The position numbers and the translations under genes were made by a program. Positions 10,863 through 42,307 of a DNA stretch of 44,127 nucleotides are shown here, one piece after another (the first letter of the stretch is position 1; every line of letters begins with the position of its first letter). This DNA comes from Rhodobacterales bacterium (GTDB lineage Bacteria > Pseudomonadota > Alphaproteobacteria > Rhodobacterales > Rhodobacteraceae): contig JAATGA010000295.1 in the NCBI GenBank assembly GCA_015654855.1, positions 1 to 44,127 of the forward strand, given 5' to 3'. Below the pieces are notes generated by a model. The model saw only the letters and a program-made list of their open reading frames with translations. It was not told the DNA's origin and ran no database searches.

Positions 10863-11906
10863 ATGGAAACCCTGAAGATCGCGATTGTCGGCGACCGGTT
10901 CCTGCGTGCGGATGTCTTTGAGACAGCCGTTCGTGCCGAGATCGACCGCCCGCTGGAGGTCGTCAAGACCGATCTGGACTGGCCCGATGTGCCCTTCCAC
11001 GGCGGCAACGGCCCTGCGGGGGCCGAGATCAAGGAATACAGCGGCGCCCCCGACGATATCGGCAGCCTGCTGAAGAATGCCGATGCGCTGATCACCCATC
11101 TGGCGCCGGTGACCGCCGGTCTGCTGGCCGGCAGCCCGAAGCTGCGCTTCGTCGGCGTCTCGCGCGGGGGGCCGACCAATGTGAACATGGCCGCCGCCCA
11201 AGAGCGCGGCGTGACCGTCTGCAACGTGCCCGGCCGCAATGCCGCCGCCGTCGCCGAATTCACCATCGGCCAGATCCTGGCCACCGTGCGGCGGATCACC
11301 ATCGGCCATTCGGGGCTGGAACGCGGCGTGTGGCGCGGCGACCTTTACCGCTATGACCGGACGGGCGACGAGCTTTGCGACCTGACCGTCGGCATCCTCG
11401 GCTACAGCCATGTCGGCCAGCGGGTGGTGCGGCTGCTGAAACCCTTCGGCTGCCGGATTCTGATCTGCGATCCCTATGCGCGGCTGACCGTCGCCGATGC
11501 GGTCTAGGGCGTGGAGCAAGTCGATCTGGACGATCTGTGCGCGCGGTCCGACGTGCTCAGCCTGCACGCTCGCGTGACGCCCGAGACGCGGGGCATGTTC
11601 GACGCCGCACGGATCGCGAAGATGAAGCCCGGCGCGGTGCTGATCAACAATGCCCGCGGCGAGCTTGTCGACCAGGGCGCGCTGGTCGCGGCGCTGACCT
11701 CCGGCCATCTGGGCGGTGCGGCGCTCGACACCTTCGCCACCGAGCCGCCGGCGCAGGACGACCCGATCCTGACCCTGCCGAACGTGACGCTGACCCCGCA
11801 TATCGCGGGTGCCTCGCGCCAGGTGGTCAGCTACGCTGCGACGATGATCGCGCGCGATCTGGGGCGCTTCCTGCGCGGGACACCGCTGAGGAACCCCTGC
11901 ACCTGA
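10863..11906 (+). pseudogene. D-isomer-specific 2-hydroxyacid dehydrogenase (PGDH-like) interrupted by one in-frame TAG at 11505-11507
   Basis: Track ORFs 10863-11507 and 11511-11906 are in the same frame, separated only by TAG and GGC. The joined product (…ICDPYARLTVADAV*GVEQVDLDDLCARSDVLSLHARVTPETRGMF…NNARGELVD…TPHIAGAS) is a normal full-length family member with the NAD-binding GxGxxG (GILGYSHVG) and a catalytic His region. Confidence 0.8.
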
Positions 11907-12046
11907 CGGCGACCGTCGCCCGCCCGGGAGGGGGCGGGCGATCCGTGCAAACAAATCGACAGGGCAAGGGGCGGCGGCGCGCAGCCGCCCCGACCGGGCG
12001 TCGTGGAGGACGCCGGCCCCGACCGGGGCCAGATGGGGAGGAGACC

Positions 12047-13654
12047 ATGAGACAGACGGCAAGAGCCGCCGGCAGCTATGTCATGGCGCTGGATGCCGGC
12101 ACCGGCAGCGGGCGGGCGATCATCTATGATCTGACCGGCGCCATCGCCGGGCTGGGGCAAGAGGAATGGAGCCATCCGGCGGTGCCCGGCGCGCCGGGTG
12201 GCCTCGATTTCGACACCGCGGCCAACGGCCCGCTGCTCGACCGGGTGATCGCCGAGGCCTTGCGCCAGGCGGGGCTGCAACCCGGCGACATCGCCGCCGT
12301 CGCCTGCACCGCGATGCGCGAAGGCTTCGTGCTTTATGACGAGGACGACCGCGAGATCTGGGCCTGCCCCAATGTCGACTCGCGTGCCCGTTGCGAGGCC
12401 GAGGAACTGACCGAGAGCGGGGCCGCCGATCGCATCTTCGCCATTGCCGGCGACTGGGTCTCGATCACCGCGCCGGCGCGGGTCCTGTGGATCCGCCGCC
12501 ATTTGCCCGAGGTCTGGGCGCGCACCCGGCGCTTTGCACTGCTGGCGGACTGGATGGCGACCCGGCTGACCGGAGTCCATGCGACGGAGCCGAGCGGCGG
12601 CTCTTCCTCGGCCCTGTTCGACCTCGCCCGCCGCGACTGGTCGGACGAGTTGCTGGCGCTTGTCGGCCTTGACCGGTCGATCATGGCGCCGGTGCGCGAA
12701 AGCGGCACGAGGCTGGGCGAAATCTCCCCCGCCGCCGCCGCGCGCTGCGGCCTGGCCGCGGGAACGCCGGTCTTCGCCGGCGGGGCCGACACGCAGCTCG
12801 CACTCCTCGGCCTTGGCCGGCGGGCGGGGGATGCGACGCTGGTCGGCGGCAGCTTCTGGCAGATGACGGTGCTGACCGACCGGCCGCTGATCGACCCCGA
12901 TTGCGGCCCGCGCACCCTGTGCCATGTGCGACCCGACGAATGGATGACGGAAGGCATCGGCTTTCTGACCGGCTTCAGCCTGCGCTGGCTGCGCGACACC
13001 TTCTTCGAGCCGCTGCGCCAGGCCTTCGGCGCCGAAGGGTCGAGTTTCACGCTGATCGAAACCATGGCAGCCGCCGCCCCTCCGGGTGCGGGGGGCGTGA
13101 TCGCCACCGTCTCCCATCCGATGCAGTCCGACGCGTGGGAGCATCCGCCGCTCGGCCTGCACGGCTTTGACATCAACAACCCCGCCGCCGGCCTCGGCTG
13201 TGCGGCGCGGGCGGTGATGGAAACCGGCGCCTTCCTCGCCCGCGCCCATCTCGACCGGCTGGAACGGCTGTCGGGGCGGCGCTACGAGACGATCCGGTTC
13301 ACCGGCGGCTCTGCCCGGGGCGATACCTGGCCGCAGATCGTGGCCGATGTGCTGGGCCGCCCGGTGGAAATCCCGACGGTCAAGGAAACCTCTGCCCTCG
13401 GCTGCGCCATGCTGGCGGCAGCGGGGGCCGGGCTTTACCCGACGCTCGACGCCGCGGTCGCGGCAATGAGCAGCCCCATCGAGCGTCGCATCACCCCTTC
13501 GGCCGAGCGTCACGCCGCCTATGCCGAAATCGAAAGGCGCTGGCGCGCAGTCAGCCGCCACGCTTCCATCATGGCCGGAGAGCACTTGCTCGCGCCCCTG
13601 TGGCAACCGGCCGGAGCCAGGAAAGGAAAACACGATGCACTCACGCTGGGATGA
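12047..13654 (+). CDS. FGGY-family carbohydrate kinase, LsrK (autoinducer-2 kinase)-like
   Basis: YVMALDAGTGSGRAIIYDLTGAIAGLGQEEWSHPAVPGAPGGLDFD closely parallels the E. coli LsrK N-terminus as I recall it (YLMALDAGTGSIRAVIFDL...AEWRHLAVPDVPGSMEFD). Later FGGY motifs are also present (GGADTQLALLG, TGFSLRWLRD, FTGGSARG, KETSALGCA). ATG at 12047 with GGGGAGGAG RBS. The Arg-rich upstream extension of the track ORF is rejected. Confidence 0.85.
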   Translation: MRQTARAAGSYVMALDAGTGSGRAIIYDLTGAIAGLGQEEWSHPAVPGAPGGLDFDTAANGPLLDRVIAEALRQAGLQPGDIAAVACTAMREGFVLYDEDDREIWACPNVDSRARCEAEELTESGAADRIFAIAGDWVSITAPARVLWIRRHLPEVWARTRRFALLADWMATRLTGVHATEPSGGSSSALFDLARRDWSDELLALVGLDRSIMAPVRESGTRLGEISPAAAARCGLAAGTPVFAGGADTQLALLGLGRRAGDATLVGGSFWQMTVLTDRPLIDPDCGPRTLCHVRPDEWMTEGIGFLTGFSLRWLRDTFFEPLRQAFGAEGSSFTLIETMAAAAPPGAGGVIATVSHPMQSDAWEHPPLGLHGFDINNPAAGLGCAARAVMETGAFLARAHLDRLERLSGRRYETIRFTGGSARGDTWPQIVADVLGRPVEIPTVKETSALGCAMLAAAGAGLYPTLDAAVAAMSSPIERRITPSAERHAAYAEIERRWRAVSRHASIMAGEHLLAPLWQPAGARKGKHDALTLG

Positions 13655-14900
13655 CGCGGAAGCCGCGCGGATCGAGGCTGCGGCCGGCGAGGATCCGGCC
13701 GATCGCGCGCTGGCGCTGCGGGTCTATACCTCGCGGCTTATCGGGCAGGAACCGGACCTCGTGCTGCATGGCGGCGGCAATACCTCGGTCAAGGTCGCGC
13801 GCCGCAATGGCGCGGGCGAACTGGCCCCGGTGATCCATGTCAAGGGATCTGGCTGGGATCTGGCGACGATCGAGGCGCCGGGTCTGCCTGGCATGTGGCT
13901 CGACCCACTGCTGGCCGCGCGCAACATTCCAGACATGAGCGACGAGGAAATGGTTCGTTTTCTGCGCGCCGAGATGCTGGACCAAACCGGCCCCACGCCC
14001 TCGGTCGAAGCCCTGATGCACGCTTTCCTGCCGCAAGAAGTGGTCGACCACACCCATTCGGCGGCCGCTCTCGCGCTGGCGAACCAGCCCGATGCGGCCG
14101 GTATCGCGCGGGCGATCTATGGCGACCGGTTGTGCGTGGTGCCTTACGTCATGCCGGGCTTCGCCTTGTCACATGCGGCCGACGGCATCTTCGCGGCCGA
14201 GGGCGAGGGGACCGAGGGCATGTTCCTGGTCAACCACGGCCTCTTCAGCTTTGCCGGGGATGCCCGCACCTCCTACGAAAACATCCTGCGTTTCACCAAT
14301 GAATGCGAGGCGTTCCTCGCCGACAACGGCGCCCCCCTGACCGGACCCGAGGGCGATGCGCGGGTGTCGTGGACGCCGCCGGAAGTCGTGGCGCTGGCCG
14401 AGGCGCTCGGCGCCCACGCACCGTTCCGCGAAAACCTCGCGGTCGATCTGCGCTCCAGCCCCGCCATCGACCGTTATCTCGCCCTACCCGATCTGGCGGA
14501 GATCTCGGCCCGCGGCACGGTGACGCCCGACCATGTGATCCGCATCAAGCCACGCCTGGTGATCGGCGCCAAGGGCTTCGCCCGGGGCGACTGGGACCGT
14601 GCGCTCGCCGCCTATGCCGACTGGTATCAGGCCTATTTCACCCGCAACGCGGCCCGGGCGACAGAGCCCAAGACCATGCTCGACCCGATGCCCCGCGTGG
14701 CGCTGATTCCGGGTCTTGGCATCGCAGGCTTCGGCCGCAACGCCAGGGAGGCCGCCATCGCCGCCGACCTGGCCGAGCAGAGCGCGCGGGTGATCTGGAG
14801 TGCCGAGCGGTTTGGCCGCTTCACCCCGCTGGCAGAAGCCGACCTGTTCGACATGGAATACTGGTCGCTGGAGCAGGCGAAACTGCGCGCCGCCGGGTAG
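13635..14900 (+). CDS. class II aldolase/adducin-domain protein (equivalent to the N-terminal half of bifunctional rhamnulose-1-P aldolase/SDR proteins)
   Basis: MHSRWDDAEAARIEAA...ALRVYTSRLIGQEPDLVLHGGGNTSVKV matches the YuxG/RhaD-type N-terminus. It ends at ...MEYWSLEQAKLRAAG, about where the SDR domain begins in fused homologues. AGGAAAGGAAAA RBS upstream. It overlaps the kinase gene by 20 nt. Confidence 0.8.
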   Translation: MHSRWDDAEAARIEAAAGEDPADRALALRVYTSRLIGQEPDLVLHGGGNTSVKVARRNGAGELAPVIHVKGSGWDLATIEAPGLPGMWLDPLLAARNIPDMSDEEMVRFLRAEMLDQTGPTPSVEALMHAFLPQEVVDHTHSAAALALANQPDAAGIARAIYGDRLCVVPYVMPGFALSHAADGIFAAEGEGTEGMFLVNHGLFSFAGDARTSYENILRFTNECEAFLADNGAPLTGPEGDARVSWTPPEVVALAEALGAHAPFRENLAVDLRSSPAIDRYLALPDLAEISARGTVTPDHVIRIKPRLVIGAKGFARGDWDRALAAYADWYQAYFTRNAARATEPKTMLDPMPRVALIPGLGIAGFGRNAREAAIAADLAEQSARVIWSAERFGRFTPLAEADLFDMEYWSLEQAKLRAAG

Positions 14901-16411: not shown

Positions 16412-17368
16412 TCAGCCCCTGATCAGGTGCCGGTCGTCCGCGCGACTGCCGGGGCGCAGGCGGCCGGCCTCGGCCACGACCTCGGCCAGCACCGAGATCG
16501 CCAGCGTGCGGGCATCGCGCGCGCCGGGCAGCAGGCCGGTTGGCCCTTTCATCGCGGCGATCCGGTCCGCCGGAATACCCAGGCGGACCAGCGCCTCGTC
16601 GCGGCGGGCGCGGGTGCGCCGGCTGCCCTGGGCGCCGATGTAGAAAGCCTCGCTCCCCGCCGCGTGCGCGAGGATCGCGGGCTCCCATTCGTGATCGTGA
16701 AAGAACAGGGTCACGGCGGTATAGCGGTCAAGGGCCACTTCGCCCAAAGCTCCGGGCCGAAGCAGGCGGTGCCGCGCGATCCGTTCCGACCGGGCCACAT
16801 CAAGTGTTTCGTCATCGGGTGAATGCAAAGCCGTCGCATAACCGGCCGAGGCGGTGAGTTCGGCGAAGGTCACCGCCTCGGGCCCTTTGCCGAAAACCTG
16901 AAAGGTGATGTCGGGCACCAGCTTCAGCCCCAGCAGCGCATCGCTGTCCGCCCCGACCCGCAAGCCCCGATCGGAAACCGACAGAAGCGCCTCGCGCCGG
17001 TCGCTTCGTGCCCGTGCGAGCGCGTCCAGAACCTCCGCCCCCGGCGCGGGCAGAATCGTCACATCCAGCGCCCCGCCGCAGGGCAGGCGGATGTCGAAGA
17101 ACGGCGAACCCGCGCCATAACGGATGGAACGTCCGCGCCCCAGGGCCAGGCACTCCATCGCATGAAACGCGATGTCGCGCTCGACACAGCCCGAAGACAG
17201 CGAGCCTGCCACCACCCGCCCGTCGCGGATCCACATCGCGGCCCCGACAGGGCGATAGGCCGGCCCTTCCGTCCCGGTCAGGATGGCGAGCGCGCTGTTC
17301 TTCGGATCTTCGATCCCCGGGGCGACCGGAAAATCCGCGAAGGTGATGCAGGCGCTGCGCGGTTCCAT
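16412..17368 (-). CDS. XdhC/CoxI-family molybdenum hydroxylase accessory protein
   Basis: 318 aa. The LTGTEGPAYRPVGAAMWI...GSLSGGCVE-like motif (SLSSGCVERD) and a C-terminal Rossmann-like part are present. It lies immediately downstream of the Mo subunit gene. Confidence 0.8.
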   Translation of the reverse strand: MEPRSACITFADFPVAPGIEDPKNSALAILTGTEGPAYRPVGAAMWIRDGRVVAGSLSSGCVERDIAFHAMECLALGRGRSIRYGAGSPFFDIRLPCGGALDVTILPAPGAEVLDALARARSDRREALLSVSDRGLRVGADSDALLGLKLVPDITFQVFGKGPEAVTFAELTASAGYATALHSPDDETLDVARSERIARHRLLRPGALGEVALDRYTAVTLFFHDHEWEPAILAHAAGSEAFYIGAQGSRRTRARRDEALVRLGIPADRIAAMKGPTGLLPGARDARTLAISVLAEVVAEAGRLRPGSRADDRHLIRG

Positions 17369-17375
17369 GGCGGGA

Positions 17376-19736
17376 TCAGCGCAGGATATTGTCGGACCAG
17401 CGCCGGCTGATATGCGGATGGTCGAGCACCGGCTCGATCCCGCAGGTCAGCGCCAGCACCTTCGGCGCCGTCAGCGGCAGTTGCTGCACCCTTTTGCCGG
17501 TGGCGTTGGCGATGGCGCAGGCCATGGTCGCGCCGCCGTTCATGATCGCGACCTCGGCGATGCCCTTGGTCCCCATCGGCCCGCAGGAGGGCGCGCCCTC
17601 GTAGAGGTCGATTTCGACCTTCACCGCATCCTGGGCGAGCGGCATGTGATAGGTCTCGAACCCGGTCTGTTCGATACCGCCATCGGCGCCGATCGTCACC
17701 GCCTCGTGGATGCCGTAACCGATGCCCTGGATCACCGCGCCCTGGATCTGGCCACGCACGGCGCGCGGGTTGATCGCCCGGCCCACATCCTGCACCACGC
17801 GATAGGCCAGCACCTCGGTTTCCCCGGTGTCGGGGTCGACGGCAACCTCGGCCTCATGCACGATGAAGACCGGCAGGTCCATCGCATCGAAGAAATGCCC
17901 CGCCGCACAGCCAGGCATGGCCTTGGCGCTTTGCGGTGCCGTAAACGCGCCGGAACCGGAGATCGGCCCTTTGGTCTGTTCGGCGCGGGCGATCACCGTC
18001 TCGATGGTCGTCCCCGATCCCGGCCGGTCCCGGATCTCGACCCGGCCGTTTCGCAGGACCAGATCGGCGGGCGGGGTCTGCAACAGCTCGGATGCGGTAT
18101 CGAGGAGCTTGTCTCGCACCACCTCGCAGGCGGCTGTGGCGGCGGCGCCCATGGAAACGACCGTGCGCCCTCCGCCGGTGCCCATATCATAGCCCGCCGC
18201 ATCGGTATCGGCGCCCTTCACGATCACCTTCGACGGATGGATGCCGAGGTTCGCCGCCACGATCTGCGGCACGCCCTGCGTGATCGAGCCCGATCCGATC
18301 TCGACGCTCGCGGTGATCAGCGTGACCGAGCCGTCGGCATTCAGGTTGATCGTCGCCGAGGACGGCCCGACGAAGATGTTCCAGGTGCCGACCGTTGTGG
18401 CGAGGCCGTAAAGCCTGTCGCCCGCGCGGTGTTCCCGGGTGCCGGTGCGTTCCCGCAGCGCCTCCATCCGGTCGAGCATCGGCCCCAGGACATCGCCCTC
18501 GAAGATCTGCCCGGTGGTGCCGGGATCGCCATCCGACAGCACGTTCAGCTTGCGGAAAGCCATCGGATCCATGCCGATCTTTTCGCAGATCTCATCGGTG
18601 TGCCGTTCCAGCGCGAAGGAATTGTAGGCGCCGTTGCAGGACCGGAACGCCCCGTTCGGTGGCGTGTTGGTATAGACCACGCGGCTCGACATCCGCACCG
18701 ACTCCAGCCGGTAGCCTGCGCCGAGCGTATGGGCCGTCATGGTCGACAGGAATATCTGCTCGCCGCCATAGGCCCCGGCATCCATCAGCACCACGGCCTC
18801 GCGCCCGGCGATCTTGCCTTCGGGCGTGATGGCCGAGCGGATCCAGATATCGGCGTTTTCCCGGCAAAGGCAGGTCTGCGTCTCTTCCTCGCGCGAGTTG
18901 ACGAGCGAGACGGTCCGCCCGGTCTTTTTCGCAAGGATCGCGGCCATGGGTTCGATCGAGGCGTCGAACTTCAGCCCAAAGGCCCCGCCGACCGGCGGCA
19001 CGGTCACGCGCACCTGCGAGGCATGGACCCCCATCACCCGTGCCGTCACGGCGCGAACCGTCCATGGCACCTGGGTCGAGGTGATCACATGGAACCGCCC
19101 GTCCTCGTAAGAGGCCACGGCCCCGCGCGGTTCAAAGGGAAAATGGCTCTGGCGGCCGACGCGGAAGCAGCTTTCGACCACGCTGACATCGGGGCGGGCG
19201 AAGGCTGCGTCGACATCGCCGCGCACGACCTTCCCCTCCCAGGCGATATTGCCGCCGCGCGCCACGCCGTCGACGATGCATTCGTAGCTTTTCCAGTCGG
19301 GGTGCAGCAGCGGCGCGCCGGGGGCCAGCGCCTCGGCCATGGTCAGGCAGGCGGGCATTTCCTCGGTCTCGACCACGACGACGGCGGCGGCGGCGCGGGC
19401 CTGTTCCAGCGTATCGGCGGCGATGGCGCAGATCGGCTCGCCAGGATAGCGGATCCGGTCGCGCACGAAAAGCGGCTGGTCCATGACACCCACGCCGTGA
19501 AGCTGCGGCGCGTCGGCGGCGGTGGCGATGCCACGGACGCCGCGCATCCTTGCCGCTGCCGAAGTGTCGATGCGCAGCACTTTGGCCGCGCCGCTCCCGG
19601 CCCGGACCACGACGGCCCGCAGCACGTCGGAACCGGCCATGTCGACCATGAACCGGGTGCGCCCGGTCACCTTGTCGCGTGCATCGCGGCGCGGCATGTC
19701 CATCACGGCAGTGCGGGGATCGACCTTCATATTCAT
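17376..19736 (-). CDS. xanthine dehydrogenase family protein, molybdopterin-binding (large) subunit
   Basis: 786 aa. The N-terminus RRDARDKVTGRTRF is typical of aldehyde oxidase/XDH a/b-hammerhead proteins. It overlaps the 2Fe-2S subunit gene by 4 nt. Confidence 0.9.
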   Translation of the reverse strand: MNMKVDPRTAVMDMPRRDARDKVTGRTRFMVDMAGSDVLRAVVVRAGSGAAKVLRIDTSAAARMRGVRGIATAADAPQLHGVGVMDQPLFVRDRIRYPGEPICAIAADTLEQARAAAAVVVVETEEMPACLTMAEALAPGAPLLHPDWKSYECIVDGVARGGNIAWEGKVVRGDVDAAFARPDVSVVESCFRVGRQSHFPFEPRGAVASYEDGRFHVITSTQVPWTVRAVTARVMGVHASQVRVTVPPVGGAFGLKFDASIEPMAAILAKKTGRTVSLVNSREEETQTCLCRENADIWIRSAITPEGKIAGREAVVLMDAGAYGGEQIFLSTMTAHTLGAGYRLESVRMSSRVVYTNTPPNGAFRSCNGAYNSFALERHTDEICEKIGMDPMAFRKLNVLSDGDPGTTGQIFEGDVLGPMLDRMEALRERTGTREHRAGDRLYGLATTVGTWNIFVGPSSATINLNADGSVTLITASVEIGSGSITQGVPQIVAANLGIHPSKVIVKGADTDAAGYDMGTGGGRTVVSMGAAATAACEVVRDKLLDTASELLQTPPADLVLRNGRVEIRDRPGSGTTIETVIARAEQTKGPISGSGAFTAPQSAKAMPGCAAGHFFDAMDLPVFIVHEAEVAVDPDTGETEVLAYRVVQDVGRAINPRAVRGQIQGAVIQGIGYGIHEAVTIGADGGIEQTGFETYHMPLAQDAVKVEIDLYEGAPSCGPMGTKGIAEVAIMNGGATMACAIANATGKRVQQLPLTAPKVLALTCGIEPVLDHPHISRRWSDNILR

Positions 19737-20218
19737 CGGGAAACGGCCTCCGCCGCCGGGGTTTCGGTTTCACGGATCGACATCACCGCGTCGATGATCC
19801 GTTCGTATCCGGTGCAGCGACACATATTGCCCGACAACGCCTCCTTTATCCCGGACCGGGTCGGAGCCGCGTTGCGCCGCAGGAAATCGGTCAGGGTGAT
19901 GACCATTCCCGGAAAGCACATGCCGCACTGAACGACATCATGTTCCAGAAAGGCGCGCTGGACGGGGTTCAGTTCTTCGGGCGGGGCGATCCCTTCGATG
20001 GTGACGATCTCTGCCCCTTCCAGCATCCCGATCGGGCGCTGGCACGATGGCACCGGCTCGCCGCCGACCATCACGGTGCAGGCCCCGCAGAAGCCCGCGC
20101 GGCAAACGCTTTTGGTCCCGGTCATCCGGCAGCCGTCGCGCAGAACGTCCAGCAGCGGCGTGCGCGGATCGCCCGCGAAATCGCGCCATTCGCCGTTCAG
20201 GGTGAATTCCACGGCCAT
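19733..20218 (-). CDS. (2Fe-2S)-binding small subunit of molybdenum hydroxylase
   Basis: 161 aa with the CRAGFCGAC and CGMCFPG...CRCTGY cysteine motifs. Confidence 0.9.
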   Translation of the reverse strand: MAVEFTLNGEWRDFAGDPRTPLLDVLRDGCRMTGTKSVCRAGFCGACTVMVGGEPVPSCQRPIGMLEGAEIVTIEGIAPPEELNPVQRAFLEHDVVQCGMCFPGMVITLTDFLRRNAAPTRSGIKEALSGNMCRCTGYERIIDAVMSIRETETPAAEAVSR

Positions 20219-20221
20219 GCC

Positions 20222-21088
20222 TCAGCCCTCCCTGCGGATCTGTTCAAAGGCCCGCCGCACCAGCACCGGCAGAACCTGAAGCCGATACCAGCCCGGCGCA
20301 TCGAGGGCCGAGACCGGCGTGAAATCAGCCGAAAACTCTGTCGCCAGCGCAGCCATCCCTGCGGGGTCCGGGGCCTGGCCGCGCGCGCGATCCTCGAAAC
20401 CCGCCCAACGTTTCGCATCCGCCTCGACCGCGCCGACGGCGAGGCGCAGATCGGCGATCCGGCCTTCCGCATCGGTCGCCATGGAAAGGCTGGCGATGGA
20501 AACGGGATAGTCGCGCGCGGGCGTCCGCGCATGGGCGGTGCGGAAACCGCTGCGGCCGAAGCGGACGGCAACGACCAGGAAAGGACCCGCCGCCCGGCGC
20601 ATCGCCATGAATTCCGTCATGTCGATGTTCCGCCGGCCTTCGGGGGTTGCCACCTCGACACGCGCGTCGAGGCACATCAGCGCCGGGATCAGATCGGCCG
20701 CGACAAAGCCCACCGCACAAAGATTGCCGCCGAGCGTCGCCAGTCTGCGGATACCCGGATTGGCCGAGGCGCCTGCCGCCACAGCCAACGCGCGCAGATC
20801 CGCCGCCTCGGGCAGGGCGCGGGCGATGCGGTCATGGCTTTCCATGGCGCCGATCCGGCCGGACAGGGCGCCGATTTCGACGCCGCGCAATTCGGCGATC
20901 CGGTTCAGCGCAACAAGACGGGCGGGCACCGGCTCGCCCCTGGTCGGGCCGCGCATGATCCAGGTGGCCCCGGCGATGGCGCGGGTGTCCGGCCCGCCGC
21001 CGGCGAGCAGTTCCAGCGCCTCATCGACCGTTTCGGGTGAGGTCAGGGGGGAAATCCCGGACTTGCGAGCGGTGCCCCAGGTCATCAT
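20222..21088 (-). CDS. FAD-binding (medium, CoxM/XdhB-like) subunit of molybdenum hydroxylase
   Basis: 288 aa. SPETVDEALELLA...AIAGATWIMR plus a later GGNL motif. ACAGGAGAC RBS upstream. First gene of the operon. Confidence 0.85.
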   Translation of the reverse strand: MMTWGTARKSGISPLTSPETVDEALELLAGGGPDTRAIAGATWIMRGPTRGEPVPARLVALNRIAELRGVEIGALSGRIGAMESHDRIARALPEAADLRALAVAAGASANPGIRRLATLGGNLCAVGFVAADLIPALMCLDARVEVATPEGRRNIDMTEFMAMRRAAGPFLVVAVRFGRSGFRTAHARTPARDYPVSIASLSMATDAEGRIADLRLAVGAVEADAKRWAGFEDRARGQAPDPAGMAALATEFSADFTPVSALDAPGWYRLQVLPVLVRRAFEQIRREG

Positions 21089-30475: not shown

Positions 30476-30479
30476 GGCG

Positions 30480-31724: not shown

Positions 31725-31730
31725 GGAAAG

Positions 31731-32627: not shown

Positions 32628-32733
32628 CGGGCATTGGCTACCCTACCGGTGCCTCCTGCCGGCCCGTCCTGGCGCATCGCTGTCTTCGAGAGGCGCTTAC
32701 ACGATCAGGGCCGCCGGCACGACCTGGGTGAGG

Positions 32734-33759
32734 TTATGTTTCCGGCCCATGCGCGCCGGGCAACCCCTTCGCCCGGCGCAATTGCGACACGTTGATCTGC
32801 AACACCCGGCGCAGACTGCGCGACAGATGCGGCGCATCGGTGAAGCCGGTGGCCCAGGCGATCTCGCTCAGCGAGCCATGGCTTTGAACCAGCAGGCGCG
32901 CGGCTTCGCGCAAGCGGATCTGCAACCAGAGACCCTTGGCGGTTTCGGCCGTCTCGGCTTCGCATATCCGATCAAGCTGGCGCCGCGACAGGCCCAGCCG
33001 GGCAGCGAGGCTGTCCACGGGTGTCGGTTTGGCGATGTTTGCCGTCATCAGCCCGATCGCCCTTTGCAACAACGGATTGTGCAACCGGCCAAAGGCCGAG
33101 GCGACCGGTGGCGGTGTCTCGGGCGCCCGCCTCCCGCTCAGACCCATCGTTGTGCAAGCCTGGCGGGCGGCCTGCTCGCCCTTGTGACGCTGAAGCAGGA
33201 ATGCGGCAAGATCCGCCGTGACCGTGCCTTCGAGCGAGGTGATACGCTTGCGGTCTTCGAGGAAAATCCGATCCGGCCGAAAGCCGACCTGCGGGAACTG
33301 CTCTTGCAGCACCGCGCATTCGGTCGGCGTCGCGCAGGCCGCGTATCCGTCCAGCAGTTTGAATCGCGCCAGCGTCGCGACCCCTTTGTCCCCGACCCCG
33401 ACAAGCGTGACGCCCAGCCTGTCGGCAGAGCGCAGATACCGGCTGACAGTGTTCGACCAGCGCCAGAGACGTGCGCTCAGACTGCCCATCACGACGATAT
33501 AGTCGAAAGCTTCCGGCCAGAGCAGCGCATCATGGGCAGCAATCTCCAGCCCGCCCATGGCAAGCGCCGGCTGGCCGGTGGGGGACATGATCGACAGCCG
33601 GTCCCGCCGATCATCCCCGTCGAACTTTTCAGGCAGATTCAACGTATCGCGAAGGCAGCCGAAGGCAGAGATCTGAAAATGGTCGAGCAAGAGGATGCCA
33701 ACCGCCAGCCGCGCGGAATCTGGTTGCAGCAGGACGGAATCAGACGGCGACATTTGCAC
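32734..33759 (-). CDS. GlxA-family transcriptional regulator (DJ-1/PfpI-like domain plus AraC HTH)
   Basis: N-terminal VGILLLDHFQISAF (DJ-1-like). C-terminal LAARLGLSRRQLDRIC ... IAWATGFTDAPHLSRSLRR (AraC HTH). Confidence 0.85.
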   Translation of the reverse strand: MQMSPSDSVLLQPDSARLAVGILLLDHFQISAFGCLRDTLNLPEKFDGDDRRDRLSIMSPTGQPALAMGGLEIAAHDALLWPEAFDYIVVMGSLSARLWRWSNTVSRYLRSADRLGVTLVGVGDKGVATLARFKLLDGYAACATPTECAVLQEQFPQVGFRPDRIFLEDRKRITSLEGTVTADLAAFLLQRHKGEQAARQACTTMGLSGRRAPETPPPVASAFGRLHNPLLQRAIGLMTANIAKPTPVDSLAARLGLSRRQLDRICEAETAETAKGLWLQIRLREAARLLVQSHGSLSEIAWATGFTDAPHLSRSLRRVLQINVSQLRRAKGLPGAHGPET

Positions 33760-33889
33760 GTTGGGCGGGCAGAACAGGAATGGTTGGGTAAAAATCTACA
33801 TCACTATGTCCTGTTCATACAATGAATATGCTTCGGGCGAGCCCTAGAATGGGTGGCACAAGAAAACGCCACCAACAGGAACGGATCGC

Positions 33890-35239
33890 ATGATGACTTA
33901 CAAAGGCGGGCTTCTGCCCCTCATCATTGCCACGACGACGGCGCTTGCCAGTCCGGGCTTTGGCAAGGACATCGACTGGAAGCAGGCCAGCGGCACCGAG
34001 ATCAACGTGCTGCTGATCTCTCACCAGTTTGTCGACGCCCTGCGCCCGCTTTTGCCGCAATTCGAGGAGAAGACCGGAATCCGCGTCAACCTCGAGGTTC
34101 TGGCGGAACAGGCCGGGAACGAGAAAATCCTGGCCGACCTCTCCTCGCGCGCGGGGCTGGTCGATGTCTTCATGACCTCGCCCCTCAACAACTGGCAGTA
34201 TGCGACTGCGGGCTGGATCGAACCGCTTGACCCCTATCTGGCGGATTCCTCGAAGACGGATGCCGAAACCTACAAGCTTGATGATTTCTTTCCGGGCGTG
34301 CTGTCATCCAACCGCTGGACACGCGAACCGCTCAAGGGCATCGGCGAGGGAGATCTCTGGGCTTTGCCCATCAACACCGAGACCTACATGCTGGCCTATC
34401 GGCCTGGCGTCTTCGCCGAACTCGGCCTGACCGCGCCGAAAACCTATGCGGAACTGCTTGGCATGGCTGACAAGCTGGACAAAGGGTCGGCCCAATACGG
34501 CATGATCACCCGTTTCGACACCTATTGGGATCTGCCTTTCCTGACATTCGGGACGATGCTGCAATCCTACGGCGTCGAGATGCTGGATAAAGACGGCGCA
34601 CTTGGAATTTGTTCGGATGCCTCGGTGCAGGCCACGGACGATTTCGTCACGCTGGTGAAGACCGCCTCGCCCGCCGGCGCCGGTGCCTTCACCTGGTATG
34701 AGGCGCTGCAAGGCTTTTCGTCCGGCCAGTATGCGCTGTCGTTCAACGAGGGCGATCTTTTTGCGCCGGTCTACGAGGATCCCGAGCAATCGGCCATCTC
34801 CGACGATGTCGCCTATGCGCCGACACCGCTTGGCCCGACCGGCGAGCGCAAGGCGGGTGCCTGGATCTGGGCCCTGTCGATGAACGCGGCCTCCGGCAAG
34901 AAGGATGCCTCCTGGCTGTTCCTCGAATGGGCAACCCTGCCGGAAACCATGATCGCGACCCATCTCGCGGGCAATATGAACCCCGTGCGCGCTTCGGCCT
35001 GGGCTGATCCGAAGGTTGCGGCCATGGTGGACAGCTGGGGATCGGAACCCGGCCAATACCGCAAAACCGTCGAGACGATGGAGGAAGTGGCCGCCGTGCG
35101 CTTTCCGCCCCACCCCGAGCTGACCCGCGCGCTTGACCGCTGGGCTTCCGCCGTTCAGGAGGTCTACTTCAAGGGAACCGATACCCGCAGCGCTCTTTGC
35201 GCCGCGCAAGACGACATCAAAGGTATGCTTGGTCTTTGA
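33890..35239 (+). CDS. ABC transporter substrate-binding protein (family 1, CUT1 sugar type)
   Basis: 449 aa with a signal peptide (LLPLIIATTTALASPGFG). Size and pattern fit extracellular solute-binding family 1. It heads the transporter operon. Confidence 0.9.
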   Translation: MMTYKGGLLPLIIATTTALASPGFGKDIDWKQASGTEINVLLISHQFVDALRPLLPQFEEKTGIRVNLEVLAEQAGNEKILADLSSRAGLVDVFMTSPLNNWQYATAGWIEPLDPYLADSSKTDAETYKLDDFFPGVLSSNRWTREPLKGIGEGDLWALPINTETYMLAYRPGVFAELGLTAPKTYAELLGMADKLDKGSAQYGMITRFDTYWDLPFLTFGTMLQSYGVEMLDKDGALGICSDASVQATDDFVTLVKTASPAGAGAFTWYEALQGFSSGQYALSFNEGDLFAPVYEDPEQSAISDDVAYAPTPLGPTGERKAGAWIWALSMNAASGKKDASWLFLEWATLPETMIATHLAGNMNPVRASAWADPKVAAMVDSWGSEPGQYRKTVETMEEVAAVRFPPHPELTRALDRWASAVQEVYFKGTDTRSALCAAQDDIKGMLGL

Positions 35240-35331
35240 TAAGGGCCGGGAACGCCCGCTGGCCTCGCCGTCAGGTCCGCGGGTGTTCTCCGGGCGCCTC
35301 CGCCGATCCTTCACCGACAGGAGTTGCCGTC

Positions 35332-36216
35332 GTGCACCCGAATAGCCGTGGCGCGGGCTCTTCCCGTATCGCTTATTACCTGATGTTTCTGCCGGCGTTG
35401 CTGATGCTGATTGCGGTCATGGTGCCCTTTGCCCAAGGCATCTACACCGCGATGACCGACCGCAAACTCTATGTCGAAACCTCCGGTTTCATCGGTATCG
35501 GCAATCTTACGATGCTCTTCGGCCAATCTGCGTTCATCGACGCTCTCTGGCGGACGCTGCTCTACGCGGTCGCCGTTATCGTGGTGCAGATCCCGCTGGG
35601 GCTTGGCGTGGCGCTGCTTCTGAACGCGAACAGCCGCCTGCAACCGATCTTACGCGGCACGCTCGTGCTGCCGCTGCTGATCCCGCCGGTGGTGGCGTGG
35701 CTTATGTGGAAGACGCTCATGCAGCCACAGGCCGGGCTTCTGAACTGGCTTCTGGGAACGCTCGGGCTGCCCGCGCTCGGCTGGCTTTCCCATATAGATA
35801 CGGCGCTCATGTCGGTGCTGCTGATCGACACCTGGGTCTTCACCCCGTTTGCTGCGCTGATCCTTCTGGCGGGGCTTCAGGCCATGCCGACCGACCAGCT
35901 GGAGGCTGCGAAAGTCGACGGCGCCTCGCGCTGGCTGGTATTCCGGGCGATCGAGTTGCCCTGGCTTGTACCTTTCCTTCTGCTGGTGGCGCTTTTCCGC
36001 GTCAGCGACAGCCTCAAGAGCTTCGAGCTCTTCTATGCGACCACGCGCGGCGGACCGATGGATGCGACCACCACCCTTCATGTCGCCGCCTATGAAGAGG
36101 CGTTCCGCTGGTCGAACGTCGGCCGCGCCATGGCCATCGTCTTCGTGCTGTGGCTGATTTCCTATGTCGCCGCCATGATCCTGACCGGGTTGTGGCGCCG
36201 CCGGTCGAGGGGCTGA
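35332..36216 (+). CDS. carbohydrate ABC transporter permease (MalF/UgpA-like)
   Basis: GTG at 35332 with ACAGGAG RBS. It has the EAA-loop region LEAAKVDGASRWLVFRAIELP. Confidence 0.85.
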   Translation: MHPNSRGAGSSRIAYYLMFLPALLMLIAVMVPFAQGIYTAMTDRKLYVETSGFIGIGNLTMLFGQSAFIDALWRTLLYAVAVIVVQIPLGLGVALLLNANSRLQPILRGTLVLPLLIPPVVAWLMWKTLMQPQAGLLNWLLGTLGLPALGWLSHIDTALMSVLLIDTWVFTPFAALILLAGLQAMPTDQLEAAKVDGASRWLVFRAIELPWLVPFLLLVALFRVSDSLKSFELFYATTRGGPMDATTTLHVAAYEEAFRWSNVGRAMAIVFVLWLISYVAAMILTGLWRRRSRG

Positions 36217-36219
36217 CCC

Positions 36220-37059
36220 ATGACGAAAAACCTGATCCCCCGCATGTTGCGTCTTGGGGCACAGCTTCTGTTCCTTGCCTTCTTCGTCGCCCCGATCCTC
36301 TGGATCCTGATGATGTAGTTCAAGGAGTTCCGCGACATCATCGCCTGGCCGCCGAAGTTCATCTTCAGGCCGACACTCGACAATTACCGCGCAATTCTGG
36401 TCGGCGACCGCCCCGGCCACTGGCCTGATTTCGTGCGCTTCATGTTGAACTCGATCATCGTATCGGGTTGTGCCGTGACGCTTTCGGTGATCCTGGGGGT
36501 GCCGGCAGCCTGGGCGCTGGCGCGCGGCGCGATTCCAGGTCGCGATCATATCGCCTTTACCTTCCTGTCGTTCCGCTTCGCGCCCGAGCTGATGGTCATC
36601 CTGCCGCTTTTTATGATCTACATGAAGATCGGGCTCTATGACACTTACATCGGCCTGATCCTGGCCCATCAGCTTATCTGTCTGCCCATGGTGATCTGGA
36701 TCATGATGTCCTTCTTCAAGGACATCCCCGCCGAGATCGAAGAGGCGGCACGGGTCGACGGAGCTTCGGTCTGGCTGACGCTTCGCGCGGTGATCCTGCC
36801 CATCGCGCTGCCGGGCATCGCATCGGCGACCATCATCGCCTTCATCTTCAGCTGGAACAATCTGATTTTCGGCCTGATCCTTTCGGGCGGCGCGACCCGC
36901 CCCGTGACTATGGGAATCCTGCAATCCATGACTTTCGACCAGATCAAATGGGGGCTTATGGCGGCCTCGGCCGTGATCGCGGCAGTGCCGGGCATGTTGG
37001 GCGCCATCTTTCTTCAGCGATACATCACGCGCGGCCTGACGATGGGAGCGGTCAAATGA
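36220..37059 (+). pseudogene. carbohydrate ABC transporter permease (MalG/UgpE-like) interrupted by one in-frame TAG at 36316-36318
   Basis: ATG at 36220 gives MTKNLIPRMLRLGAQLLFLAFFVAPILWILMM*FKEFRDIIAWPPKF... The same frame continues into track ORF 36433-37059, which carries the EAA loop EEAARVDGASVWLTLRAVILP. The TAG sits where this family usually has the Ser of an N-terminal SFK motif. Confidence 0.8.
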
Positions 37060-37997
37060 GCGAGCTCGACCTCCTTTCCGTCGGCTCGTGGACGATCTTC
37101 GATTATATTCTGCGCGCCTCGCATTACCCCGACGAGGGTGAGACCGTGCCGCTCGATATGCCGTCAAAGCTGATCCACACGAAATTCTTCGGGGATTGCT
37201 CGGCCAATCTGGGGGCTGCCGCGGCCTCGCTTGGCGTCAAGGTCGGGCTTGGCATGGTGGTGGGCGACGACTTCAACACCTCGGGCTATCGTGCGCATCT
37301 TCTGGAACTTGGCGTTGACCTTTCCGGGGTGGATGTCCGCGCGGGCGAGGATTCGGGCTACAGCTACAACGTTTCGGATCCGAAAGGCCGCAGCGTCTGC
37401 TATTCGCACCTGGGCATCGCCGCCGACCAGTCGTCCTGGGAGCCGCCGATCACCCAGATCGAACGCGCCCGGGCCGTCGCGGTCAGCGAGAAATTCTGCG
37501 GCTATACGCTTGAAACGCTGCGCCACGCGCGCCGCCGCGGCAAACTGACGGCAATTAACGGCATGGTCGGCACCGCGAACGAGCTTGCGCCGGACTTTCT
37601 GGCCGCCGCCGACATGCTTTTCATCAGCGAAAGCGAGGCCCAGGCCCTGATGCGCCTGCTGGACATGCGTTCGCTTGGTGAATTGCAGGCTGCCGGGCCG
37701 CAGACCATCGTTATGACGCAAGGCGCGCGCGGCAGCCGCTGGCTGACCCCGGAAGGGGAGTTCTTCTGCAATGCGGTGCCCGCCTCGGTGGTCTGCGACA
37801 GCACCGGCGCGGGGGATTCCTTTGCCGGAGCGGCCATCGCGATGATACTGAAGGGTCACAAGTTGCGGGACGCCGCCGAATATGCCGCCACCATGGCCAG
37901 TTTCGTGGTCGAGAAATGGGGCTGCCAGACAAATCTGGTCGGACTGGAACGCATCGAGACCCGGCGCCGGATCTTCTTCGAATACGAGGACAAGTGA
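37056..37997 (+). CDS. PfkB-family carbohydrate kinase
   Basis: MSELDLLSVGSWTIFDYIL... with the C-terminal DSTGAGDSFAGA motif. ATGA overlap with the permease stop. Confidence 0.85.
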   Translation: MSELDLLSVGSWTIFDYILRASHYPDEGETVPLDMPSKLIHTKFFGDCSANLGAAAASLGVKVGLGMVVGDDFNTSGYRAHLLELGVDLSGVDVRAGEDSGYSYNVSDPKGRSVCYSHLGIAADQSSWEPPITQIERARAVAVSEKFCGYTLETLRHARRRGKLTAINGMVGTANELAPDFLAAADMLFISESEAQALMRLLDMRSLGELQAAGPQTIVMTQGARGSRWLTPEGEFFCNAVPASVVCDSTGAGDSFAGAAIAMILKGHKLRDAAEYAATMASFVVEKWGCQTNLVGLERIETRRRIFFEYEDK

Positions 37998-38821
37998 TGC
38001 GGATTATCGACACACATATCCACTATGGGACCGATCGCAATGTGGCGGCCCATACCTGCTGCCCCAGGCTGATCGCAGGCGATCCCGACAGCGTGATCGA
38101 CTTTCTCGACGAACAGGGGGCTTCGCATGGGGTGCTTTTCCCCCATGACCGCGTGATGAGTCCGCCCTGGGATGCCGATTACGACAAGGCCAACATGCAG
38201 GTGGGCGAGGCGGCCCTGCGCCATCCCGGCCGGATCGCCGGACTTGCGCGCATCAACCCCGCATTCGGCGCCGGACATACCCGCGACCTGATCGACAAAT
38301 ATGTCGGCGAATGGGGGTGCCGGGGCCTGAAGCTGGTGGCGGGCTACGATTTCTACCGCCCGAACGATCTGCGCGTCACCGCGCCCATGTGGGAAAAATG
38401 CGAGGAACACGGGCTGACGGTGCTCTTCCATTCGGGCGATGCGCCGCGCGATCTGCCATATTTGCAGGCGCAGGCCGCCAAGGCCTTTCCGGGGGTAAAA
38501 TTCGTGCTTGCCCATATCGGTATGCATTCCTTCCTGTGGGAAGCGATCCTTGCCTGCCAGGAATATCCGAACATCACCGTCGACATGTCGCAGGCGGCCG
38601 CTTTCGACATCAAGACCTTCATCGCCAATGTCGGCGCGGACCGTCTGACCTACGGATCGGACGCGCCCTATGTCAGTCCGCGTGTCGAGCAGGAAAAGCT
38701 GCGCGTGATCGACCTTTCACCCGAGGATCGGGAAAAGGTGTTCTGGAAGAACGCCGCCCGCATCTGGGGCTTTGACGAAACCATCGCGGCCGGTGCTGCG
38801 GCAGAAGGAACGAACCAATGA
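37997..38821 (+). CDS. amidohydrolase family protein (Amidohydro_2 TIM-barrel metal hydrolase/decarboxylase type)
   Basis: MRIIDTHIHYG (HxH metal motif), later HSGD and AHIG. TGATG overlap with the kinase stop. Confidence 0.85.
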   Translation: MRIIDTHIHYGTDRNVAAHTCCPRLIAGDPDSVIDFLDEQGASHGVLFPHDRVMSPPWDADYDKANMQVGEAALRHPGRIAGLARINPAFGAGHTRDLIDKYVGEWGCRGLKLVAGYDFYRPNDLRVTAPMWEKCEEHGLTVLFHSGDAPRDLPYLQAQAAKAFPGVKFVLAHIGMHSFLWEAILACQEYPNITVDMSQAAAFDIKTFIANVGADRLTYGSDAPYVSPRVEQEKLRVIDLSPEDREKVFWKNAARIWGFDETIAAGAAAEGTNQ

Positions 38822-39633
38822 CCAACCGCCTTTCGCAGCTTTTCCCGGTCAGAAAGCCGATCATCGGCATGGTCCATGCGCTGGCGACCCCCGGCGCCCC
38901 CATGGCCGGATATGACAGCGTGGATGCCGTCTACGATCACGGCCTCGCCGAGGCCCGGCGCCTGAAGGATGGCGGGATCGACGGCATCCTGATCGAAAAC
39001 GCGGGCGATGTTCCCTTTTTGCGCCCCGAGCAGATCGGCTTTGAAACGGTCACGGTGATGGCCGTTCTCGGACGGATGATCGTGCAGGAAACCGGGTTGC
39101 CGGTGGGTTTCAACATCGTGGCGAACGCCGCGCTTGCGTCGCTGGCCTGCGCCAGGGCTTCGGGCGCCAGCTTCGTGCGCGTGAACCAGTGGGCGAATGC
39201 CTATGTGGCGAATGAAGGCCTGATGAACGGCGTGGCTGCGGATGCCCTGCGCTATCGCGCCAGGATCGGCGGCACTGACATTGCCGTTCTGGCCGATGTG
39301 CATGTCAAACACGGCTCGCACGCGATCGTCGGCGACCGCCCGGTTGCCGAACAGGCACGCGATGTTTCGTTCTTTCAGGCGGACATCGCCATCGCGACCG
39401 GCCTGCGCACCGGTCACCCCGCCTCGCTTGAGGAAATCGAAGAGGTGAAATCGGGGGGCGGGCTGCCGACGATTGTCGGCTCCGGGCTCTCTGCCGACAA
39501 TGCGCGCGAGATCCTTTCCGCCGCGGATGGCGCGATCGTGGGCGTCAGTCTGAAACCCGGCGGCACGATGTGGGGTCCGACCGATCCCGACCGGGTGGCA
39601 CGTCTGATGGACGTGGTTGCGGGGCTGCGCTGA
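38818..39633 (+). CDS. BtpA/SgcQ-family TIM-barrel protein
   Basis: KPIIGMVHALATPGAP...GGIDGILIENAGDVPF...VRVNQ...ADVHVKHG...GSGL fits the BtpA family pattern. ATGA overlap with the preceding gene. Confidence 0.75.
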   Translation: MTNRLSQLFPVRKPIIGMVHALATPGAPMAGYDSVDAVYDHGLAEARRLKDGGIDGILIENAGDVPFLRPEQIGFETVTVMAVLGRMIVQETGLPVGFNIVANAALASLACARASGASFVRVNQWANAYVANEGLMNGVAADALRYRARIGGTDIAVLADVHVKHGSHAIVGDRPVAEQARDVSFFQADIAIATGLRTGHPASLEEIEEVKSGGGLPTIVGSGLSADNAREILSAADGAIVGVSLKPGGTMWGPTDPDRVARLMDVVAGLR

Positions 39634-40976: not shown

Positions 40977-41013
40977 TACTAATCCTGATAAGATGCAGTT
41001 ATCAGGATTAGTA
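40977..41013. repeat. perfect 15-bp inverted repeat (TACTAATCCTGATAA - 7 nt - TTATCAGGATTAGTA) inside an AT-rich island
   Basis: Read directly from the sequence. It lies between convergent genes (stops at 40693 and 41228), in the only strongly AT-rich stretch apart from the region upstream of parA. Confidence 0.8.
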
Positions 41014-41227
41014 AGAAATACAGACCCTATACCAATCCTCCGCCGAAAAACTCGCCCGCAGCAGACGCTTTTCACCCCCAAAACCTCTTGGGAGAGCATC
41101 TCCCGCACCCGGCAGATACAAATCGAATGAAACAAGGACCCGCCCGCCCGGCCCGTGAGGTCGCCGGCGGTGTGTCTCCCGCACCCGCGACGCGGCCCGG
41201 GGAAGAGTCGCTCCCGATCCGCGCGCC

Positions 41228-42307
41228 TCAGCCCGGCCGGTCGAGCAACCGTTGCAGCTCTGCGATCAGCGTGTCGATCAGATCCCGGCCCACGGGGCGA
41301 TGCCCGCCGATGCGGATCATCCAGCCCCTGGCATCCTCTTGCGCCTGGAGGGTGAAGCCGCTCGACAGCGCGCGCTGCGGCCCCTCCGCCCGCTTCGGGC
41401 GACCGCCCTTGCGGGGATCCGGCGCCGGCGCCTCAAGACCCGCCAGCAGGCCGGCGATCAGCGCCGCCTCCTCCCCCGGCCCCTCCGGCGCAGCCTCGGC
41501 CAGCCCCTCGCGCAGGCCCGCCTCTGCCCCGTCGCGCAGGGCCTGGGCCAGGCGCAGCCCGTCCTTTTCACGGATCAGATCTGGGAATTTCAGCATATCC
41601 CCCAACTCTTCGAAGATCAGAGCGAAGGACCGGATCTTCTACCGTTTCGCCTTGGAGGCCACCGGGAACAGGGCGTCCACCGCCGCCTCGACGTTTGCGA
41701 AAGCCCCTTGCTGTGCCGCGATCACCGCGATCCGCCCGCGTTCGTAGTGGCTCAGCCCCGCGCGGATCTCGTTCTCCTCGACCATGGCGGCGAAGGAGCC
41801 TCCCATGGCCTCTGGTTCGCGCAGCACCGCCTTGATCCGCGCGTGCCGGTCCTCGCCGGTCAGGGCGTGCAGCGCCCGCACCGCCATCAGCCGGCGATAG
41901 CCCGACAGAAGCCCGTAGCGCGCCCCCTCCCCTGCCCGCTCGAACACCTCGACCGGCAGCCGCAACCCGTTGCGCGCGATCGAGGCCTTCAATTCCTCCA
42001 TCTCTTCGGCGTCGATCACCACCCGGTCGCGGACCAGGGCGTCAGCGTCGATCTCGGCGAGGTCGAGGTCCAGCATGACGAGGCCCCTGCCCTTCGCCGC
42101 CCGAAAGCTTTCGGCCTCGGCCCGGTCGCGCGCGGCCCCGGCGCGCACATCGGCGCTGCGCGGATCGAAGCCCGCCGCCGCCTCTGCCGCAACCTGGGCG
42201 ATGGGGACCGACGCGGCGCGCGGCAGCGCCGGGGCCTGGCCGAATTCGGCCTCCATCCGTTGCAGATCCTCGGTCGAGGGGATTTCCAGATTGCGCCGTT
42301 TCGCCAT
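41228..42307 (-). pseudogene. parB: ParB/RepB-type partition protein interrupted by one in-frame TAG at 41639-41641
   Basis: Track ORFs 41639-42307 (ParB N-terminal/HTH part: LPVEVFERAGEGARYGLLSGYRRLMA, EENEIRAGLSHYERG) and 41228-41605 are in the same frame. My own translation across the junction gives ...FPVASKAKR*KIRSFALIFEELGDMLKFPDLIREKDGLRLAQAL..., with no other stop and high GC3 on both sides. The total of 347 codons is a typical ParB length. Confidence 0.8.

Follow-up and report, generated by a model that had tools for sequence, protein, structure and literature searches.

Three in-frame TAG codons on an accessory Paracoccaceae contig point to recently broken genes or consensus errors rather than an altered genetic code

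Introduction

Known examples of TAG reassignment or suppression are pyrrolysine decoding, TAG-recoded phages and laboratory amber suppressors. Mutators that lack mutY or mutM have a spectrum dominated by G:C>T:A, and a classic artefact of oxidation in sequencing libraries is likewise G>T. Here we analysed a window (the whole stretch of DNA under study, 44,127 nucleotides) from an accessory, plasmid-like, GC-rich contig whose source is a member of the Paracoccaceae resembling Gemmobacter/Pseudogemmobacter; a megablast search of PLSDB with its dehydrogenase region found no close plasmid, the sole match spanning 127 bases at 79.5% identity. A preliminary description of the window had reported a single internal TAG in each of three genes, the coordinates of which we confirm, and in each case the frame runs on to a normal full-length end:

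11505..11507, forward strand: premature TAG in a 2-hydroxyacid dehydrogenase gene (10863-11906), codon 215 of 347
36316..36318, forward strand: premature TAG in a MalG-like ABC permease gene (36220-37059), codon 33 of 279
41639..41641, reverse strand: premature TAG in parB (41228-42307), codon 223 of 359, motif SKAKR[S]KIRSF

These stops resemble nonsense pseudogenes of the ordinary kind, or loss-of-function alleles that segregate, in bacterial accessory replicons in being one-base stops in conserved domains, with an intact allele in a near-identical relative, an otherwise undecayed gene and older remnants nearby; they differ in that three fall within 44 kb without a new frameshift and one lies in the replicon's own parB. 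The resemblance to 8-oxoguanine-type mutagenesis (MutM/MutY/MutT), or to an oxidative library artefact, is that G:C>T:A accounts for each of the stops and for two radical missense changes; the contrast is that this class makes up only about one third of the differences from the relative. What they share with TAG reassignment and suppression systems is an in-frame TAG within genes whose frame continues. They are unlike those systems in that only three TAGs occur in 12,638 codons, at the positions of two amino acids and absent from close relatives, in a window where TAG is a normal terminator and no tRNA-CUA is encoded.

The interrupted genes

The closest comparator is the public run SRR10968246, six Logan contigs of which match 28.4 kb (28,381 bases) of the window at 99.96% identity. 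One of these contigs (L002, window positions 8857-13934) has a single mismatch to the window in 5,078 bases, namely the stop base of the dehydrogenase gene. The ancestral codon is GAG (Glu), altered by G>T at 11505, and an intact 347-amino-acid allele (P0122) carries Glu at the stop site. Homologues have Asp or Glu in this column and none of 26 has a stop. The TAG falls within the NAD-binding domain (residues 136-315), upstream of the invariant residues R237 and H313, and truncates the product, a sugar-acid dehydrogenase.

A second contig (L001, window positions 30468-39129), with 4 differing bases in 8,662, reads TCG at the permease site and has an intact 279-amino-acid product called from it. 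The ancestral codon is TCG (Ser) and the change is C>A at 36317, in agreement with the earlier guess that the site was the Ser of an SFK motif. This TAG lies ahead of the entire BPD_transp_1 domain (residues 107-273). An intact allele differing by one base is therefore present in a close relative for both the dehydrogenase and the permease, and these two stops are demonstrably private to the window's lineage or record.

In parB the stop occupies a column in which every one of 28 aligned homologues has Ser. Among 80 related genome loci the motif was found in 67, all of which have Ser at the site (67/67), encoded by TCG (25), TCC (22), TCA (10), AGC (6), TCT (3) or AGT (1). TCG alone among the Ser codons is one step from TAG, and the ancestral codon was probably TCG, converted by a coding-strand C>A. 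We found no near-identical parB in the searched collections, and pattern scans for the exact flanks over the parB TAG gave zero matches in genome contigs or metagenome contigs. Exact-product look-ups for the ParB fragment, ParA, BtpA-like and ABC ATPase proteins returned none, and the 90% clusters of the same four proteins had no near-identical Logan member. The nearest ParB proteins in species-representative genomes (Gemmobacter megaterium, a Paracoccaceae MAG and Falsigemmobacter) are 72-74% identical. The stability of the replicon should suffer from a truncated ParB that it carries itself, and if the lesion is real, unstable inheritance of the replicon is predicted, or a second partition system elsewhere.

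Alignment with orthologues, as the preliminary description had proposed, places Glu (in an Asp/Glu column), Ser and Ser at the three TAGs, and at each site the stop lies in or ahead of a conserved domain or motif, with loss of essential parts. The truncated products would be expected to be non-functional. The unchanged GC3 reported past each TAG is confirmed (0.85/0.89 around the dehydrogenase stop, 0.81 on the 3' side of the permease stop and 0.86/0.85 around the parB stop). Its reading, together with the family-typical sequence, as a sign of function does not stand: where the relative covers the gene (dehydrogenase and permease), the sequence downstream is base-identical to it, which leaves no time for decay, and its preservation is not evidence of function. 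An intact frame 3' of a stop shows only that the change is recent.

TAG as a terminator and as a chance outcome

TAG remains a true terminator in this window, as had been claimed. The 36 coding sequences (CDS) end in TGA (30), TAG (3) or TAA (3). The LysR gene ends in TAG at 32627, identically in the relative (L001), and the aldolase gene ends in TAG at 14900, an end shared by another contig of the relative (L007), with no in-frame back-up stop for the following 57 codons. L007 opens with 31 bases that have no match in the window and are taken as an assembly-graph tip. The biotin carboxylase gene, with profile coverage of positions 3-450 of 467, ends in TAG at 29111, and TAGGAGAAAG...GTG, the ribosome-binding site and start of the next gene, follows immediately on the 3' side. 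The two hairpins described after the aldolase gene can be seen by eye, but a consensus terminator scan scored no canonical T-tailed terminator there.

From the codon usage of the window, one-step nonsense changes are expected to yield TAG in 58% of cases, TAA in 27% and TGA in 15%; within the G:C>T:A class, TAG accounts for 52% of nonsense changes. The chance that three of three stops are TAG is therefore P ~0.2, and the TAG-only pattern is no more than chance expectation because the GC-rich codon usage makes GAG, CAG, TCG and AAG, each one step from this stop, abundant. A scan of the 36 curated CDS (12,638 codons) found no internal stop beyond the three TAGs, bearing out the statement that the other genes are free of TGA and TAA interruptions.

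Comparison with a near-identical relative

Over the 28,381 matched bases the window differs from the SRR10968246 contigs by 12 substitutions (5 synonymous, mainly transitions, 5 missense and 2 nonsense) and 0 indels. The absence of indels in 28 kb, together with end-to-end coverage of the other annotated genes by Pfam and NCBIfam profiles, argues for an assembly of good quality. The mix of effect classes is close to neutral expectation and appears to show that the window and the SRR10968246 metagenome contigs are truly separate lineages that have diverged by near-neutral change; the 12 differences look as if they had escaped the filter of selection. At 10 of the 12 the window carries the GC>AT state relative to the other sequence (P ~0.01), a bias that is expected of derived private mutations set against a population consensus. 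By class, six are G:C>A:T and four are G:C>T:A (5/13 with parB). The nonsense share, 2/12 against ~3% expected, is mildly high, with a P of ~0.04 that is uncorrected for the choice of this window on account of its stops. Two private missense changes of the G:C>T:A class are the most radical of the set:

2283, reverse strand: D159Y (GAT>TAT) in a 339-amino-acid gene (1738-2757)
35698, forward strand: G123W (GGG>TGG), G>T, in a MalF-like permease gene (35332-36216)

Asp159 is invariant in three known homologues and lies within a conserved block. The position of G123W is occupied by small or aliphatic residues in solved homologues (Ser, Ser, Ile), hence is not invariant, and this change says little.

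Origin of the stops

The explanation that we lean towards, with real reservations, is that each TAG arose separately, and very recently, by a G:C>T:A substitution, and that the three are real loss-of-function alleles under weak or no selection rather than readable codons. One base would have changed in each case, GAG>TAG in the dehydrogenase, TCG>TAG in the permease and, as inferred, TCG>TAG in parB, cutting short three products (sugar-acid dehydrogenase, ABC permease, ParB) of an accessory contig that already carried older remnants. Nonsense decay was among the explanations offered in the preliminary description and remains viable, given the 58% share of TAG and the sense codons in the relative at two sites; so does the consensus or assembly error that it also offered, since an independent assembly has sense codons at the same two sites. 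We infer that the stops are real rather than consensus errors. Certain observations count against this preference for recent mutation. The five G:C>T:A changes, with parB included, are all damaging and two are at invariant residues; nonsense changes exceed their ~3% expectation; the TAG alleles were seen in no other assembly of the searched collections; and one of the truncated proteins is ParB.

Consensus, assembly or DNA-damage errors are a possible though more doubtful origin, in which the true codons would be GAG, TCG and TCG and the changes would be due to oxidation of guanine (G>T) and deamination of cytosine (C>T), with low coverage of the data. Such errors would account for TAG-bearing fragments that are confined to this record while a separately assembled, near-identical sequence reads as sense at two of the sites, and for the biological awkwardness of a broken parB. 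All of the GC>AT differences belong to the G:C>A:T or G:C>T:A class in the window, both of them damage classes, and the changes affect invariant residues as if unfiltered by selection; very recent real mutations, however, predict the same spectrum and the same absence of filtering, so that neither discriminates between the two. The lack of indels over 28.4 kb and the five synonymous differences suggest divergence between strains rather than noise. Random G:C>T:A change yields a stop ~5% of the time, and the nonsense excess is therefore explained no better by error than by mutation.

A special case of real mutation, which we regard as unlikely, is an oxidative-damage mutator lineage (a defect in MutY, MutM or MutT) or strong oxidative stress, with a genome-wide rise in G:C>T:A that would generate amber stops in number. 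D159Y and G123W, the two most radical missense changes, belong to this class together with the three stops, and it makes up 4/12 of the differences, or 5/13 with parB; these are small numbers, and with 6/12 being ordinary G:C>A:T transitions G:C>T:A does not appear dominant. Repair genes are not found within the window.

It is more improbable still that each knock-out was favoured, for instance because transport or catabolism was costly and its loss of benefit, or because plasmid copy number or partition was altered. Two of the stops do fall within sugar uptake or catabolic clusters and the nonsense share is above neutral expectation (2/12, P ~0.04), but the excess is small and uncorrected for the way the window was picked, no pathway is common to the three genes and no parallel disruptions were observed in other lineages.

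Least credible is the option that the preliminary description, which made no choice among its three, had stressed as notable: that a suppressor tRNA-CUA or weak RF1 keeps the dehydrogenase, permease and ParB full length and lets TAG-disrupted genes persist on the replicon. It has in its favour only that all of the stops are TAG and that the frames run on intact. Against it, three of three TAGs are expected by chance, the residues replaced are Glu and Ser rather than one amino acid, neither the relative (99.96% identical) nor any orthologue has the TAGs, TAG closes three genes (that of the aldolase with its 57 codons free of a back-up stop), no tRNA gene lies within the window, the base after the stop varies by site (G, T, A), and recency accounts for the intact downstream sequence wherever a close comparator is available, as it is for two of the genes.

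Related candidates were also rejected. Reassigned TAG would recur in many genes, be lost as a terminator and stand for one amino acid; here there are three internal TAGs in 36 CDS, three genes with TAG as their terminator (shared with the relative in two cases), and Glu, Ser and Ser at the internal sites. Programmed read-through is contradicted by the lack of a stop in 26 dehydrogenases, in 28 ParB proteins and 67 parB loci, and in the L001 permease allele. A shared sequence or methylation motif (GANTC, GATC, CTAG or the base after the stop) is not apparent by eye, the contexts GGTC[T]AGGG, ATGT[A]GTTC and CGGT[A]GAAG being different.

We put the stops down to genes broken recently in an ordinary way, or to consensus errors, and not to an altered genetic code. 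The case carries little biological weight, and serves as a worked example that, where a genome is GC-rich, interruption by TAG only does not in itself point to recoding. In practice, pseudogene annotation is appropriate for the three genes, or else a re-check of their bases against the reads.

Older decay on the contig

The possible frameshift in an AAA+ remnant that had been pointed out earlier is real:

5334..5980, reverse strand: older pseudogene, remnant of an AAA-family ATPase gene detected by tblastn

With a 370-amino-acid AAA ATPase of Paracoccus yeei as the query, the match to the remnant passes from frame -3 into frame -2 at ~5459-5468, and the first 154 residues of the query do not align to it. 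Decay on this contig is therefore not confined to TAG stops. The aldolase spans only positions 1-428 of bifunctional aldolase/SDR models of ~685 positions, and this partial coverage is likewise counted as older decay.

Premature TAG codons and their probable ancestral states

Three genes of the contig are interrupted by an in-frame stop, each exactly where the preliminary description placed it:

11505-11507: premature TAG, codon 215 of a 347-codon D-2-hydroxyacid dehydrogenase
36316-36318: premature TAG, codon 33 of a 279-codon MalG-like ABC permease
41639-41641, minus strand: premature TAG, codon 223 of a 359-codon ParB

Past each TAG the frame continues to a normal gene end with third-position GC unchanged and, as had also been claimed, no other internal stop occurs among 36 coding sequences curated from open reading frames, third-position GC, Pfam and NCBIfam matches and gene calls on related contigs. 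Genuine terminators in this set comprise 30 TGA, three TAG and three TAA. For both dehydrogenase fragments and the ParB fragment, this contig is the sole source on record. If real, the stops would cost the dehydrogenase half of its NAD domain and with it the invariant Arg237 and His313, and would end the permease ahead of its entire transmembrane domain. ParB would keep its N-terminal ParB domain and lose the C-terminal 137 residues, from the invariant SKAKRSKIRSF motif on, so impaired partition is predicted unless another system compensates.

Six near-identical Logan-assembled contigs from public run SRR10968246 align to 28,381 bases of the window at 99.96% identity, with 12 substitutions and no indels. 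One of these, L002 (5,078 bases), departs from the window sequence at position 11505 only, where its codon is GAG (Glu), and its dehydrogenase is intact (347 aa); another, L001 (8,662 bases), reads TCG (Ser) where the window's permease gene is interrupted, and encodes an intact 279-aa product. At these two sites, the ones with a comparator, only the window carries the change. No near-identical parB was found in the collections searched; the parB TAG falls on a serine that is invariant across 28 aligned homologues and, in a scan of 80 related genome loci, present in 67 of the 67 with the motif SK[AGS]KRxKIRSF. TCG is the commonest codon for this serine (25/67 loci) and the sole serine codon one step from TAG. 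Given these codons, the dehydrogenase and permease stops are single G:C>T:A transversions, and so is the parB stop as judged from homologue serine codons. This mutational class is associated with 8-oxoguanine.

That all three stops are TAG carries no meaning. When all possible single-base substitutions are counted for each codon of the window's genes, 2.5% create a stop, of which 58% are TAG, 27% TAA and 15% TGA, bearing out the earlier point that TAG is the stop most easily reached in a GC-rich genome. For G:C>T:A changes only, 5.3% yield a stop, which is TAG in 52% of cases. Its precursors GAG, CAG, TCG and AAG are abundant in the window, and the probability of three TAGs in three stops is about 0.14-0.20.

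Substitution spectrum

Differences between the near-identical relative and the window, given as relative > window
G:C>A:T, 6: 1989 (R257C), 14557 (P308L), 15708 (syn), 15737 (syn), 20783 (syn), 35398 (syn)
G:C>T:A, 4: 2283 (D159Y), 11505 (E215*), 35698 (G123W), 36317 (S33*)
G:C>C:G, 1: 33955 (syn)
A:T>G:C, 1: 20776 (T105A)

Ten of the 12 differences are GC>AT in the window, a 10:1 excess over AT>GC (P about 0.01 against symmetry) which indicates that nearly all derived states lie on the window's side. Their effects (five synonymous, five missense, two nonsense) are close to the expectation for unselected mutation; D159Y alters an invariant Asp of a conserved block and G123W a non-invariant position. 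The nonsense share is somewhat above expectation (P about 0.04), a value not to be taken at face value since the window had been flagged because of these stops.

Older lesions

5334-6292, minus strand: AAA-family ATPase remnant, frameshift at about 5459-5468
13635-14900, plus strand: "class II aldolase", 421 aa, ending in TAG

The frameshift suspected in the ATPase remnant is real. A 370-aa Paracoccus yeei plasmid AAA ATPase can be aligned in frame -3 as far as 5468 and in frame -2 over 5459-5334, its first 154 residues having no alignable counterpart in the window. The remnant is locally scrambled around 5540-5620 and its Walker-B-like stretch reads VVVYEVEK versus MIVDEIEK in the homologue. 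In Paracoccus plasmids the intact gene adjoins metallophosphoesterase and DUF6634 genes, both absent from the window. The "aldolase" covers only positions 1-428 of the approximately 685-position bifunctional aldolase/short-chain-dehydrogenase models and ends just past the EYWSLEQAKL boundary, and no dehydrogenase remnant is seen within 400 bases after it; the gene represents a stand-alone half or else an old truncation. Its end is common to the relative (contig L007, SRR10968246_728950). Bases 1-31 of L007 mismatch the window where L002 matches, probably reflecting an assembly-graph tip or a strain junction in the metagenome.

Origin of the stops

Private mutations of a single clone or lineage, compared here with a population consensus, may have accumulated on a weakly selected accessory replicon and given rise to the three stops, and we give this reading slightly better than even chances. 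Consensus errors from damaged DNA (oxidised G, deaminated C) in low-coverage data are a realistic but less probable source, for which the main argument is that a broken ParB is biologically awkward. The pattern of 12 differences fits mutation and damage equally well, and the two are inseparable in the present data because both are blind to selection and AT-directed. We lean towards real mutation because the synonymous transitions mark window and relative as truly different lineages, because 28 kb contain no indel, and because older lesions were already on the contig. The case is one of familiar nonsense pseudogenes or draft-assembly substitution errors.

That the host naturally carries an amber suppressor, the one reading of note if true, is very improbable, as every testable defining feature of recoding or suppression fails: internal TAGs are rare (3 in 12,638 codons), replace two different amino acids, are followed by varying bases (G, T, A) and are missing from all orthologues and the near-identical relative, while three genes are terminated by TAG and no tRNA was found within the window. 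The preliminary description rightly took TAG for a real terminator, two of these ends being common to the relative and the third directly followed by the next gene's ribosome-binding site. Its argument for function from family-typical sequence and codon bias past the TAGs does not hold, since in the two genes covered the downstream sequence is identical to the relative base for base, which shows only that the stops are recent and decay has not yet begun. Pyrrolysine decoding, TAG-recoded phages and programmed read-through differ in mode of action from the window's TAGs.

Replicon identity and gene content

The window corresponds to an entire 44,127-base contig of an NCBI record. With parA-parB at its right end and a cargo of sugar and organic-acid genes, it is suggestive of a plasmid or chromid fragment. 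ParA, ParB and a TorT-like protein point to a position close to Gemmobacter, Falsigemmobacter and Pseudogemmobacter (Paracoccaceae); megablast of the dehydrogenase region returned no close PLSDB match. The contig ends show no overlap hinting at circularity. Its right end lies 400 bases upstream of parA (43725-44127) and its left end inside a gene, so the replicase gene and origin, expected beside parAB in Rhodobacterales plasmids, would lie beyond the record. Other gene content includes:

28-2757, minus strand: three co-directional genes (partial, 415-aa and 339-aa products) with no Pfam match
16412-21088, minus strand: xanthine-dehydrogenase/CO-dehydrogenase-family molybdoenzyme cluster (FAD-binding, 2Fe-2S and molybdopterin subunits, XdhC)
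22370-22753: lumazine-binding-like small protein
within 22768-23481 and 27264-31509, minus strand: two LamB/YcsF (PxpA-like) genes

The molybdoenzyme cluster adjoins an AraC-type regulator and the lumazine-binding-like protein. One LamB/YcsF gene clusters with CT_A_B and CT_C_D carboxyltransferase-domain proteins, biotin carboxylase and biotin carrier protein, with a divergent LysR regulator alongside, and this cluster looks like biotin-dependent lactam or oxoproline-type catabolism. Among 5.8 billion proteins, just three are homologous to the 339-aa product; the one from Pseudogemmobacter humi carries the annotation HlyD-family periplasmic adaptor.
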